This document shows positions 5,294-62,450 of a stretch of 64,000 bases of DNA, one piece after another. This DNA is from Moniliella sp. 'wahieum' (lineage: Eukaryota), in NCBI GenBank assembly GCA_003971905.1, contig RSEE01000078.1:248001-312000 (forward strand). Direction: 5' to 3'. Within the stretch, counting starts at the first letter, position 1. Every line of letters begins with the position of its first letter. The notes under the pieces are model-generated. The model saw nothing but the letters and a program-made list of their open reading frames with translations. It made no database searches and was not told the DNA's origin. The position numbers were made by a program, and so were the translations under genes.

Positions 5294-5342
5294 TGACTGG
5301 TGACCGGTGACTAGTGACTAGTGACTATTCACTTGTCACGCG
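5294..5342. repeat. 7-bp-register T(G/C)A-N4 array
   Basis: TGA CTGG TGA CCGG TGA CTAG TGA CTAG TGA CTAT TCA CTTG TCA CGCG read directly. Confidence 0.85.
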
Positions 5343-5859
5343 TTTCGCCACAGTAGCTGGGCCGCACAGGCACCTCCTGGGCGTGTGGGCGCAGCTATTT
5401 AAAGTACGACCAGGCTGACTAAGTGCTGCGCTTAAGCACTACGGATGTGCTGATTCATGATGCATGATTAATGATTGTCCTCCGCCTGCGCCGAGTGCTG
5501 GCTGACCTGCAAGGCACAAGGGCAGGGGGGCTGTGGCGCTGTGATAGGGTTTGTGTTCTGCACTGGGGCATGGGGCAGCGCAGTGGAGCAGCCGAGGCAG
5601 GGGCACAGTGTGTGGCATTGGTGGTGGGCACTGGGCCCGGGTGCGGGTGTCTTGCCCCAGCGCAGCCTGGACCCCCCAGCATCCCGCCTGTGGCCCGCCT
5701 GTGGCTGCGGCTGCAGACCTCAGACCGAGGGCGCAGGCCCAGGTCAAGCGCCCCAGCGCACTGTGCCTTGCGCCGCATGCCTGACGCCCGACAATAACCA
5801 AGCTGAGCTTCGCACTCCTGTCGCAGGTTGGGTGCGGCTCAAAGGCTCCAGCGTCAGCT

Positions 5860-5885
5860 TCAAGCTTCAAGCTTCAAGCTTCAAG
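5860..5885. repeat. (TCAAGCT)n heptamer array
   Basis: TCA at 5860, 5867, 5874 and 5881 with AGCT spacers. The same unit occurs at about 12640-12667, and on the other strand at about 37064-37080 and 37309-37329. Confidence 0.85.
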
Positions 5886-6463
5886 GCGCCAAGCTTCTAA
5901 ACGCTGCGGCTGAGGCCTGGCCCTGCGGGGGTCAGGGCAAGTGCTGCGTGCTGCGTGCTGCGCGGATAGTGCATCCCTTTGGTTTCTGTTTCCGCTTCTG
6001 CTCGGCGCTGCTCTGCCCTGCTTTGCTCCGCTCTGCCCCTCCCGCTGCCCTTCTGGTGGGCTCCACCACCTCAGCCCCCCTTCCGTTTCCTTTCTTTTGC
6101 CCGGCATGGGCCTTGGCGCGCGTTTTCTGCGCCGCTCCGACGAGCCTTCAAGCGCCTCCGCCGCCCCCCTCTGCTCGTCAGGCGTCGTCTGGGTCATCGG
6201 CGGCCGAAGCCTTAGCCTCCGTCTCGGCCTCCGTTTCTCCCCCCACAACAAACCACGTCCCTCCCGTCTTGCCGCTCTCGGCCTCCGCCGCCCCGCCCGC
6301 AGGCGCGATAGCACCGACGACCGTCCTGCTGCCTCTCTCGCCACTCCCGCTCCCGCTCCCGCTCCCGCATCCTCCGCTCCTCCACTCCTCCCCCCACTCA
6401 ACCTCAGTACCGCCCCTCGTAGTTCTCACCATGCCTCCTCCGTTGTTCCCCCCTCGCATCTGC

Positions 6464-59651: not shown

Positions 59652-60402
59652 GATGATGGGCGGGTTGGGAGGAGGGTGCGGTAGTATTAGTGACGGCGAT
59701 GGGGGTGGCTTGGGTAGATGATAGGGCTTGATAGGGCCTGATTAATGATGGTGCGTGGGGCGCCTAGCAACAGCCCCTAGCACGCCTAGCAGGCGGCAAC
59801 TACGTAACGCGCCGTGACGTAATGCGCGAAAAGCACACCCGGACGTCATTTCGTTGTTTCAATCTGAGATCTGATCGAGGGCAGTAGCAATCTATCTTCG
59901 ATGCTCTCTCACTGTACCTGAGATCAATCTAGGGCGGATATAAGCACTACAAGCCCGGGTAGGTTTAGTCGTTAACGTTTAACTACCTCCGTTTGTTGAG
60001 GCTGAGCATGTTGAAAAAGTGGGGATGATGGAATCAGAAACAGAGGCACGAAATTGCAATACGAAAGAGAGGGAGACTTGGATTCCAGACCCGAAGATTG
60101 TTCGCTGATGGAAGCTTGAAAGGTGGGGGGTATGCATATACATGTGTGGAATAAAGCCACATGAGAACGAAACGATCGAAGCAGAAATACAGGAATCGGC
60201 GTATAGAGGGCTGGTAGATAGAGTGGGCTGGCGAGGCATCCGCGCATGTCATGACAACACATGGGTTCGGTCCGTGCGAGGCGTTTGAAGGCAAGAAGGC
60301 GTGAAAATCGAGAAAAGTAAAAGCGGCATAAACGAGACTTGTGAGATGGGGGTAGGCGCACACCCCTTGTTGCAGGGGGTCGGCGCAAGCACCAAAGAAT
60401 AG

Positions 60403-61476
60403 TCACGGGGACGTAAGGTTGGGGAACATGTCCAAGATAAGTTCGAGGTGCTCCTGCTGGAGACGCTCGCGCTTGACGTGCCGCGAGAGGCAGTGCCGCT
60501 GGGCATCATGCCGCCGAGCAAAGGCGTGCATGCACCACGGAATGGGCACTGCCATGGCCGTTCCCGCTCCGGGTTGTGGATCTGCATGTGCTGGTGTAGG
60601 TTAGACACACGTACAAATCCCCGGTTGCAGTCCGAGCAACGATGGGGCCGGGCGACGGTGTCGTAAGGCGCGGATTTGGTCCGTTGCACACGCCGGATAC
60701 TGTCCAACTTGGCAAGTGCACCCTGCTGACGCGAGGGCCTGCGCATCACGGGCGAGGACACGGACGGAGTGGAAATGGCAGAGAGGGCCGCATCGGATGC
60801 ATCGGGTGCAACTGCGATAACAGACGCGCCAAACGCGGCAAGATTCGGAGTCGAAGCCCCCTCATTAAAGAGTAGGAAGGGGGGCGTGGGGGAAGGATGC
60901 ACCTAGGGTCGAAAAGAACCATGGCCATGTTTCAAGGCAGGCATTCTCACCCTCGGCCTCGCCAAGCTGCAGGCAAGACTCCCACACTGTTGGTTCAGCG
61001 GTCCACGACGAGAGCGGTGAAACATCCACCGTCGACATATCTTCCGACAGCGGCATTGCAGCGGTTGGGGCAGGGTAATTGTGCCCTGCTAGGGGGATTG
61101 GGCAAGAGGAGGGATAGGGGGAAGAGGTCGAAGCCAATCGGATGAGGGGATTAAAGCAAGTTCCTGGGGTGGAGGGGCAAGCACCCGAAGTTGCGGCCAT
61201 CTGTGGGCTGCCCTGTGCACAGGTGTGGCCAGGCCCTCCTTGGTTCCCTTGGGCGAGAGAGTTACTGGAGTAAGAGTCGGGCTTGACACCGCCAGGGAAT
61301 GTGGCAGCTGAACAGCTGGTGCAGATGTTGACACGGTGGATGACACCATAGGCCAGGCATTCTTTGGGCTGGCACTGGTACCGTCGGGTGGTCAGGAGGT
61401 GTGCCTCCAGTTCTCCGGCGGCCATGGTGAAGAGGGTGGACGTGAGGTGGTCTTCAAGCGAAGAAGTGTGGGACAT
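60403..61476 (-). CDS. C2H2 zinc-finger transcription factor (two C-terminal fingers)
   Basis: PHRCSDCNRGFVRVSNLHQHMQIH, linker NPERERPW, second finger QCPFRGAC..FARRHDAQRHCLSRH after a frameshift. Low-complexity N-terminus. Start approximate. Confidence 0.85.
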
Positions 61477-62029
61477 GTTGTGAAGCGGGTGTTGGGTGAG
61501 AGGGGGGGGGAATTCAGGCAAGAGGCAGCCATGATTTGCTGGATATTTAACCTGGACAGTGCGGGTACTATTTCCGCGCAATGCGTGACTAGACTCATTC
61601 AAGCGGCAGGATACAAGAGCTTCATGTACATGCGTGCACTATGCGTCAGACTGGAGATCGGAGCCTTCAACGTCAACCTTCCCAGCCTGTGACTAATTCA
61701 TAGTGTACGCGTAAGCGTCGAGCTTGAAGCTTGAGGGACCCTCTGTGCCTGACGACGCGCGAGTCCGACGACTCAGGCACAGCGCCAGTGTATGTGGAGC
61801 GCCGTGTGGTGTGGTGCCTTGTCTTATCTCAGCCCTTGGCGAAGCCGTCGCGGCAGCGAGAGCACATAGTGCGATACGTGGTACCCAGTACCCGGTTCGT
61901 ACCCGAACTCCGAGCACGTACCCTTCCCTGCAGGTGTGGTGAGAAGAAGGCGGCGCTGAAGTCCGACAGGGTCCGAGGCAGAACTGATGTCTTGGTATCG
62001 CAGCGTACCCACCTCCTAGCCAATTATAC

Positions 62030-62450
62030 ATTGATCCGATAATCGATCATCATTGAATATTGACACCACTAATCAAATGTGGAATTCAACGTACCCAGTA
62101 TTCAGTAACGACGAACTAGTAACTAGTTCCTACTCAATTGTGCATGATGCCTGTCGAGGACCCCGTCCGCTTTTCTTGGCAGCGACGCCATAGATTGTGA
62201 ACTCGCGCAGTGCTCGCACTCGTTCACGAGTCACGAGTCACTAGTCCTAGCCACTAGTCACTAGTCACTCGTCACCACGACTGGTGGCATGTGGCATTTG
62301 ACGACAGATGTCACACATGTCAAGCAATGTGTCATACATCGTAGCCGATTCTTGAGCGTGTGATAATCGATCGATTATCGAGATTATCTGTGTCTCGTGT
62401 CTGCGGGGGGGGGGGGGCGGACAAGGTCTCTCGGGAACGACGATTATCGA
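62030..62450. repeat. Heptamer arrays and palindromes upstream of the C2H2 gene
   Basis: TCA CGAG TCA CGAG TCA CTAG ... CTAG TCA CTAG TCA CTCG TCA (62224-62274). Perfect 18-bp palindrome GATAATCGATCGATTATC (62362-62379). Confidence 0.75.

Follow-up and report, generated by a model that had tools for sequence, protein, structure and literature searches.

Why should short tandem repeats of seemingly unrelated sequence, scattered through the gaps between genes, share one period, one core and one symmetry? This question is raised by a 64-kb stretch of the genome of the fungus Moniliella sp. 'wahieum' (contig RSEE01000078.1, positions 248,001 to 312,000; the whole stretch is called the window below, and all coordinates refer to it). 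Its intergenic DNA carries heptads, in which T-N-A trinucleotides recur in a 7-bp register, separated by 4-bp palindromes; equivalently, the repeat unit is the odd palindrome XY-TNA-Y'X', where Y'X' is the reverse complement of XY. The first-pass annotation of the window listed 14 of the 16 possible palindromic spacers, and all of them are found at the positions it gave: CCGG (5301), CTAG (5308), TTAA (5465), AGCT (5860), ATAT (12227), CATG (12441), GGCC (13561), GTAC (13764), TCGA (14616), GATC (14921), ACGT (14944), CGCG (33814), GCGC (50204) and TGCA (52275). The two that it had not seen, AATT and TATA, are indeed absent from the window, an absence without significance at only 2.5 and 3.4 expected sites, respectively. 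Most sites also lie inside the range that it had delimited (5294..62380), but a few fall outside (2743-3345 and 63445).

The heptad observation is genuine and very strong. Among perfect tandem runs, period 7 leads with 40, and every other period from 1 to 15 has at most 12. Perfect period-7 runs of at least 14 bp number 62 and reach up to 4.7 copies, the longest being 33 bp, and arrays detected by Tandem Repeats Finder extend to about 10 imperfect copies. An odd-palindromic unit is present in 33 of these 62 runs (10.9% expected), and 32 of the 33 have a T-N-A core, the lone exception being TCACTGA at 50561; the full XY-TNA-Y'X' rule is obeyed by 32 of the 62 units, where about 2.7% is expected. 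The proposed 7-bp spacing of TSA (T[CG]A) emerges clearly when judged against 100 dinucleotide shuffles: the autocorrelation at a distance of 7 bp is 174 versus 64.5 ± 8.9 (z = 12.3), and the signal persists at 14 bp (z = 7.1) and 21 bp (z = 4.1). The spacer is palindromic in 98 of 174 TSA-N4-TSA pairs and in 113 of 246 TNA-N4-TNA pairs (0.46), against a background of 6.1% of all 4-mers. This excess is limited to N4, with 15 of 52 palindromes at N2 (background 23%) and 2 of 89 at N6, neither of which is in excess. None of the other 15 classes of outer letters shows a palindrome excess with N4 (all at most 8.1%; A-N-T 5 of 177). Since the excess is found for T-N-A only, the rule is polar (5'-TNA-3') and specific.

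The rule can be stated more sharply. The 12-mer XY-TNA-Y'X'-XY-TNA, or its reverse complement, occurs 122 times in the window, versus 0.3 ± 0.6 in 40 shuffles. In the general form K-core-rc(K)-K-core, where K is the stem and rc(K) its reverse complement, counts judged against the same number of shuffles fall from these 122 at a stem length of two to 8 at one (versus 4.6), 1 at three and 1 at four. Swapping the core gives 0 instances for CNG, 1 for GNC and 3 for ANT, and even cores show no comparable excess in this test. The elementary unit is a 12-mer that requires two inverted bases, no more and no fewer, and a T-N-A core and no other. Of 113 pairs of adjacent cores, 97 agree in their centre base and 11 have complementary centres, and the units are therefore direct repeats. 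Runs at lag 7 that are T-N-A-palindromic have a modal length of 12 bp (n = 33), and 25 of these 33 are in the phase XY-TNA-Y'X'-XY-TNA or its reverse complement. An unbiased count took in all 91 lag-7 runs of 12 bp. Their 2-nt spacer matches, as reverse complement, the first two repeat bases in 20 runs and the last two in 13, where chance gives about 5.7, and nearly all of the flank-matching runs have T-N-A. Taken together, lag-7 runs become rarer with increasing length, up to 33 bp.

Isolated 12-mers number 46. When chains are defined as T-N-A cores joined by palindromic 4-bp spacers only, the window contains 88 independent chains, and in 78 of them at least one side (one side in 55, both sides in 23) has a spacer half that reverse-complements the dinucleotide next to it. 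The 10 chains that lack such a match are close to chance level, since shuffles give about 8 pairs of T-N-A cores around a palindromic 4-bp spacer. Two-core chains comprise 12-mers and 14-mers at about 48 to 14. By our own rate argument, point-mutational decay of two-copy 14-mers would yield at most about one 12-mer per three 14-mers; the observed ratio exceeds this ceiling, which rules out 12-mers as decayed 14-mers and implies that they arise directly. Single XY-TSA-Y'X' heptamers outside lag-7 repeats are not enriched (99 vs. 108.7 ± 12.0), which argues that the symmetry is created by an event rather than pre-existing. Palindromic units at periods 4, 5, 6, 8 and 9 are not enriched either, leaving period 7 alone. 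XY is used in keeping with the dinucleotides found next to the remaining T-N-A sites of these gaps (p = 0.22, chi-square test); as any T-N-A-flanking dinucleotide can be XY, the occurrence of 14 of the 16 spacers is accounted for. The centre base is mildly biased to C or G (63 of 74 vs. 431 of 593). Seven times the spacer switches in register, for example from TGCA to CTAG at 52275-52321 and from CGCG to CTAG at 49707; at such switches the 4-bp spacers remain intact palindromes, and it is the odd heptamer that is hybrid. Chain ends continue to an in-register T-N-A over a non-palindromic spacer in 23 of 176 cases, near the background rate.

Where do these elements lie relative to genes? A codon-usage score trained on Pfam-supported exons splits the window into 44.7 kb of coding-like and 18.7 kb of noncoding-like DNA. 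Pairs of T-N-A cores around a palindromic 4-bp spacer number 92 in the noncoding-like DNA, versus 3.6 ± 1.8 in within-segment shuffles, and 19 in the coding-like DNA, versus 4.5 ± 2.2; the impression that arrays are sparse in coding sequences and dense 5' of genes proved correct. Gaps holding at least one gene 5' end contain 74 of the 88 chains in 12.4 kb (5.96 per kb), compared with 3 chains in 2.9 kb of convergent gaps (1.04 per kb), 2 chains in the 6 kb of the noncoding-like region at 52.9-58.9 kb (0.34 per kb) and 9 chains in 42.8 kb of genes (0.21 per kb). Noncoding status alone therefore does not account for the pattern, since the 6-kb noncoding-like region is nearly heptad-free. Single gaps contain both orientations of the centre base, and no pattern was found in its strand polarity relative to genes. 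What is demonstrated within the window is that the rule exists, that it is exact and does not depend on XY, and that the sites obeying it cluster in gaps with gene 5' ends.

An exon of the MTHFR gene in the window has its best named relatives in Tilletiaria anomala (71%) and Ustilago trichophora (70%), besides one further protein that is 96% identical, which bears out the affiliation with Ustilaginomycotina guessed in the first-pass annotation. Metagenome contigs scanned with the 96% relative yielded 80 loci with best-segment identities of 39-75%; the best of them (75% protein identity) lies on a 4.5-kb contig, and no close relative is among the 80. None of these loci rises above background, with a palindromic-spacer fraction of 0-0.14 where at least 10 pairs are present, versus 0.46 in the window. 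Doubling as a negative control, they suggest that the pattern belongs to this lineage. In the open-access literature searched, palindromic T-N-A heptads were not found described for fungi or for any other organisms. The heptamer (ATTCACG)n, which the first-pass annotation gave as common in intergenic DNA of Ustilago maydis, found no support in the literature searched, and its unit would not obey the rule. The heptads combine known kinds of sequence change, heptanucleotide repeats and templated insertions, under an apparently undescribed rule, and there is a fair chance that they mark something new.

The explanation that we favour, with a confidence somewhat short of even, is a lineage-specific and precise templated insertion of 7 nt at T-N-A sites, proceeding via a hairpin or fold-back intermediate in promoter DNA and followed by slippage. 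A T-N-A site with the left neighbours XY would gain seven bases (XY-TNA -> XY-TNA-Y'X'-XY-TNA): the five bases XY-TNA would be copied directly, centre base included, and the two bases between the copies would be the reverse complement of XY. In the mirror-image event, the right neighbours of T-N-A would serve as template. The 7-bp period (5+2), the palindromic spacer Y'X'XY and the odd-palindromic unit XY-TNA-Y'X' would all follow, because they are by-products of one insertion step. Templated synthesis and hairpin opening are the only possible sources of the two inverted bases, and the five direct bases would stem from duplication; in the putative hairpin or fold-back, T-N-A would be at the turn. 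As the inverted copy always has exactly two bases and T-N-A is invariant, the geometry is probably set by an enzyme and not by free polymerase slippage, and a hairpin-forming transposase-like nuclease or another break-and-rejoin activity in open promoter DNA could be responsible. Further rounds at either T-N-A, together with replication slippage of whole units, would lengthen 12-mers into arrays; the arrays of up to 33 bp and their decaying length series fit slippage acting on the products. A round using the other flank of a T-N-A would switch the spacer and keep the register. Promoter effects, if any, would be secondary. The heptads would then be proto-microsatellites and short heptanucleotide microsatellites, all produced by a single, precise kind of mutational event particular to this lineage.

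One of two options raised in the first-pass annotation, a fold-back, template-switch or hairpin-opening process at promoters, agrees with the flank-templated 12-mer and with the 74 of 88 chains in 5' gaps. A narrower proposal, which we consider unlikely, is that this lineage possesses a dedicated and so far undescribed break-and-rejoin activity that cuts at T-N-A with fixed geometry and leaves the 7-nt scar XY-TNA -> XY-TNA-Y'X'-XY-TNA; candidates for its agent include a hairpin-forming transposase that has been domesticated and an enzyme of the topoisomerase type acting at open promoters. If this were true, promoter gaps would have accumulated a record of these breaks, and an entire class of microsatellites would originate in them.

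Several points weigh against templated insertion. We infer that bases were inserted, and not that the sites were selected for, and the product could not be derived from the chemistry of any known enzyme tried. A Transib- or V(D)J-style 5-bp duplication plus 2 P nucleotides has the right shape, but it needs an asymmetric target and P nucleotides only on the XY end, never on the TNA end. Hairpins with a one-base offset, as in hAT elements, would give A-N-T cores, seen 5 times, and complementary centres, seen in 11 of 113 pairs; two opposed topoisomerase I cuts on either side of the centre base (T^N^A) would likewise give complementary centres, and non-palindromic spacers. Besides the arrays, the window holds no transposon copies and no dispersed or terminal-inverted-repeat families. 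Moreover, the whole case is built on this one 64-kb window, and gene directions are taken from Pfam matches and the home-made codon-usage score, that is, from approximate models rather than annotation.

Other candidates were also rejected. A TNA target duplication with a 4-bp filler from transposon ends would leave bare 10-mers, which are at chance level (10 of 88 chains), and would need 14 different termini. The idea that heptads place stop codons in three frames (7 mod 3 = 1) conflicts with the presence of both TCA and TGA arrays upstream of the same gene and leaves the palindromes unexplained. An origin of the T..A pair by CpG decay is contradicted by the CpG-containing spacers TCGA, CGCG and ACGT, which are common.

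Among the rival explanations, ordinary slippage survives best, improbable as it appears to us. Heptamers that fold with a 2-bp stem and a T-N-A triloop would be favoured because, once looped out, they avoid cleavage as flaps or repair as loops, and neither a special enzyme nor a special insertion step would be needed. In yeast, palindromic loops evade repair, and seven bases would be the shortest unit that gives a 2-bp stem and a 3-nt loop. Head-to-tail repeats, the same centre base and the decaying length distribution are all compatible with such slippage, as is the finding that heptanucleotide loops are reported to be outside mismatch repair in Schizosaccharomyces pombe (Villahermosa et al., 2017, PMC5427490). 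Array strands do fold into hairpins with T-N-A triloops, with z of -3.5 to -4.2 for four of the eight stretches folded, but the other four fold no better than shuffles. Slippage of foldable units further predicts other self-complementary periods and G/C closing pairs, whereas periods 4, 5, 6, 8 and 9 show none, CNG and GNC cores are essentially absent and 3-bp stems (lag 9) are limited to 1 case. The supposed seeds, single palindromic heptamers, are not enriched, and the dominant 12-mer cannot be obtained by duplicating a 7-bp unit. The near absence of heptads from 6 kb of other noncoding-like DNA would also be left unexplained.

Next in probability, and likewise doubtful, the heptads could be excision scars of a cut-and-paste transposon that targets promoters, forms hairpins on the flanking DNA and builds arrays by repeat visits to T-N-A targets. 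A direct repeat of the target with a 2-nt inverted copy of the flank has the classic look of P nucleotides, the geometry is fixed, the pattern is lineage-specific, and the preference for 5' gaps resembles that of several DNA transposons. An open reading frame (ORF) at 10955-11758 even matches, weakly, the helix-turn-helix of Tc5/pogo transposases (E = 3.6e-5), but none of the longer proteins searched is detectably related to it, and the target that pogo elements duplicate is TA. The 64 kb contain no element, terminal-inverted-repeat family or dispersed repeat, the 5-nt direct repeat is asymmetric (NN-TNA) and the inverted bases are on one kind of end only. To our knowledge, every superfamily with 3-, 5-, 7- or 8-bp duplications is at odds with one feature or more.

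A slightly smaller probability still is assigned to functional promoter elements, either bound by a factor that polymerises on T-S-A at 7-bp spacing, or structural (cruciforms, nucleosome-free DNA, origins) and selected for dyad symmetry. Chains are concentrated in gaps with gene 5' ends, some arrays have hairpin or cruciform potential, and three units would make 21 bp, about two helical turns. However, T-N-A alone is constant and the spacers follow background dinucleotide use, so that there is no constant sequence beyond T-N-A to be read. In addition, the commonest form is two-core and asymmetric, the centre base faces either way within one gap, and selection gives no reason why the inverted bases should match the flank exactly. 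A polymerising factor that reads TSA plus dyad symmetry, the other option of the first-pass annotation, is not supported in view of the background spacer use (p = 0.22), the mixed centre orientation and the 80 MTHFR-relative loci, none of which carries the pattern. Finally, an artefact of sequencing, base-calling, polishing or assembly, a concern raised at the outset, is highly implausible with about 90 independent short sites in unique sequence, strand polarity (113 for 5'-TNA-3', 5 for 5'-ANT-3'), 14 different spacers and confinement to particular gaps, and no error mode is known to us that would produce inverted dinucleotides templated by the flank.

The heptads are set among eukaryotic, intron-containing genes at a G+C content of about 58%. 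Besides MTHFR, the window encodes PRPP synthetase, a ZIP transporter, XPB/RAD25, SPC25, CENP-H, an S9 peptidase, a DHX29-like helicase, a fasciclin protein, alpha-SNAP and a C2H2 zinc-finger protein, as well as two tRNA genes at 4789-4869 (+) and 30861-30956 (-). Four isolated elements (TCA-TGCA-TCA, ACTCAGTACTCA, TAA-ACGT-TAA and TGTCACATGTCA; 2743..3345) lie in or beside the divergent promoter of the PRPP-synthetase and ZIP-transporter genes and at the start of the latter. They are followed by the chains TGA-CTGG-TGA-CCGG-TGA-CTAG-TGA-CTAG-TGA (5294..5327) and TGA-TTCA-TGA-TGCA-TGA-TTAA-TGA (5451..5476), and by an (AGCTTCA) array with 4.3 perfect copies (5856..5897) upstream of a plus-strand gene starting near 5.9 kb. 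The biggest heptad-rich gap (11830..15200) is a divergent promoter region with many chains, located between a minus-strand gene that ends at about 11.8 kb and a plus-strand gene that starts at about 15.2 kb; its arrays include those at 12638-12668, 13761-13787, 14611-14647, 14865-14882 and 14917-14957. The gap is bordered by the pogo-like ORF mentioned above (minus strand, 268 amino acids, weak match to PF03221, the Tc5/pogo DNA-binding domain, E = 3.6e-5), which could be a domesticated protein of the CENP-B kind or what is left of a transposase. It also contains the sole palindromic 9-mer array of the window, (CATGACATG)2.9 at 12452-12478, whose unit is a 9-base odd palindrome with A centre, outside the T-N-A and 2-nt rule. 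A rare arrangement in which TCA and TGA forms face each other is found at 13533-13571, where the inverted pair GCCTCAGGCCTC ... CCTGAGGCCTGAG surrounds (CCCCTCA)2.4.

Heptad elements upstream of the MTHFR gene (18539..18962) include (CATGCAT)2.9 at 18785-18804. The same (CATGCAT)2.9, followed by 10 similar bases (93% over 30 nt), is present at both 18785-18814 and 50797-50826, with unrelated wider flanks. A small divergent gap (27438..27590) has the four short elements ATCATCGATCATC, GCATCATGCATC, ATCATCGATC and CATCATGCATCA, and the two 12-mers CCTCAGGCCTCA and GCTCAGCGCTCA (30618..30699) lie in a convergent gap, 160-240 bp downstream of the minus-strand tRNA gene. Both tRNA genes have heptad elements 160-430 bp downstream (5294-5327 and 30618-30699), possibly by coincidence. 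Upstream of a minus-strand gene are CTTGAAGCTTGA, (CGTCACG)2.7 and CTCAGTACTC (33648..33851). The divergent promoter gap at 36975..37900 comprises (TTGAAGC)2.6, (CTTGAAG)3.4, (GATCATC)2.9, several 12-mers and the 8-bp variants (GCCTGAGC)5.6; the 8-bp arrays of this gap, (GCCTGAGC)5.6, (GCTTAGGC)3 and (GCCTTGAG)3.1 at 37013-37057 and 37327-37380, resemble heptad units plus one base.

The second large heptad-rich gap (49650..52640), on the 5' side of the minus-strand fasciclin gene, again holds many chains, among them a 7-core chain at 52275-52321 in which the TGCA spacer turns to CTAG in register. The region 52900-58850, with its 2 heptad chains, has a low coding score and 46-56% G+C. No Pfam match was found there in any ORF of at least 70 amino acids, and no homologue for the longest ORF (55647-56363, 239 amino acids); the region may consist of orphan genes, a degraded insertion or heterochromatin-like DNA. 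Three short elements (59739..59983) are located upstream of the minus-strand SNAP gene, and heptad elements including (CACTAGT)2.6 at 62252-62269 upstream of the minus-strand C2H2 zinc-finger gene (61721..62453). A run of about 14 G at 62405-62420 lies beside them in this promoter-side gap.

Surveys of simple repeats commonly end at units of 6 bp and would overlook a heptad class of this kind. Should the rule hold throughout the genome, it would be among the cleanest mutational signatures known to us at the sequence level, with 122 instances versus 0.3 expected in 64 kb, and it would indicate a specific DNA-breaking or template-switching activity tied to promoters. Microsatellites would then be born by templated insertion instead of from chance proto-repeats, and there would be a testable handle on where breaks or hairpins occur in fungal promoters. 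If the elements are functional instead, they would constitute a new kind of promoter element, defined by construction and not by sequence.

How, then, do the heptads compare with known systems? Like microsatellites, they are head-to-tail tandem copies of a short unit. Birth by slippage independent of the unit is not what is seen, as 32 of the 62 units are on the rule and the 12-mer contains no 7-bp duplication. Heat-shock elements, which are nGAAn arrays read by trimeric HSF, with constant units in alternating orientation, are alike in having short units, strict register and promoter location. Here, in contrast, all but three positions of the unit vary, the units repeat in direct orientation and the variable part follows the flanking sequence; a constant recognition unit is lacking, and so is the pattern in the 80 MTHFR-relative loci. 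The hot-spot consensus of Tn10, GCTNAGC, and the restriction sites CC^TNAGG and GC^TNAGC are odd palindromes with a T-N-A centre that are cut by symmetric dimers around a degenerate centre base, and they share the XY-TNA-Y'X' architecture with the heptads. Their XY is one fixed dinucleotide read by a protein, whereas in the window any dinucleotide can be XY, and the symmetry arises with the event instead of preceding it.

The footprints of hairpin-forming transposons (hAT, Transib, MULE) and V(D)J joints come close as well, with a direct repeat of the flank, an intervening reverse complement of the flank end and inverted stretches that most often have 2 bases; in the heptads, too, the inverted copy lies beside the flank whose end it repeats. 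They differ in that the 64-kb window is free of element copies with terminal inverted repeats, the number of inverted bases is fixed at 2, these bases always occupy the end opposite T-N-A, and arrays extend up to seven cores. We know of no transposon superfamily that matches the T-N-A requirement and the 5-bp repeat.

In fission yeast, 7-nt loops are reported to lie outside mismatch repair, which loops of more than four bases escape, and to depend on Msh3, Exo1, Rad50, Rad51 and FEN1 (Villahermosa et al., 2017, PMC5427490). The heptanucleotide reporter of that work, (ATCGTCC)5, is engineered and comes without palindromy, a T-N-A rule or a birth process. It is plausible that the escape of 7-nt loops from mismatch repair would let heptads persist and grow once made. 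Heptanucleotide repeats are also known from bacteria, where over-represented heptamers include GGGAATC of Xanthomonas and those of Nostoc (Rehm et al., 2015, PMC4692102). These short tandemly repeated repetitive (STRR) sequences resemble the heptads in their period of 7, their intergenic location, often near promoters, their short and fast-looking arrays and their unexplained origin. However, the bacterial repeats are prokaryotic and have one or a few fixed, non-palindromic units, often in facing inverted arrays, whereas the commonest form in the window is 1.7 copies long, the host is an Ustilaginomycotina fungus, and at least 14 unit types, built on 14 different spacers, obey one rule.

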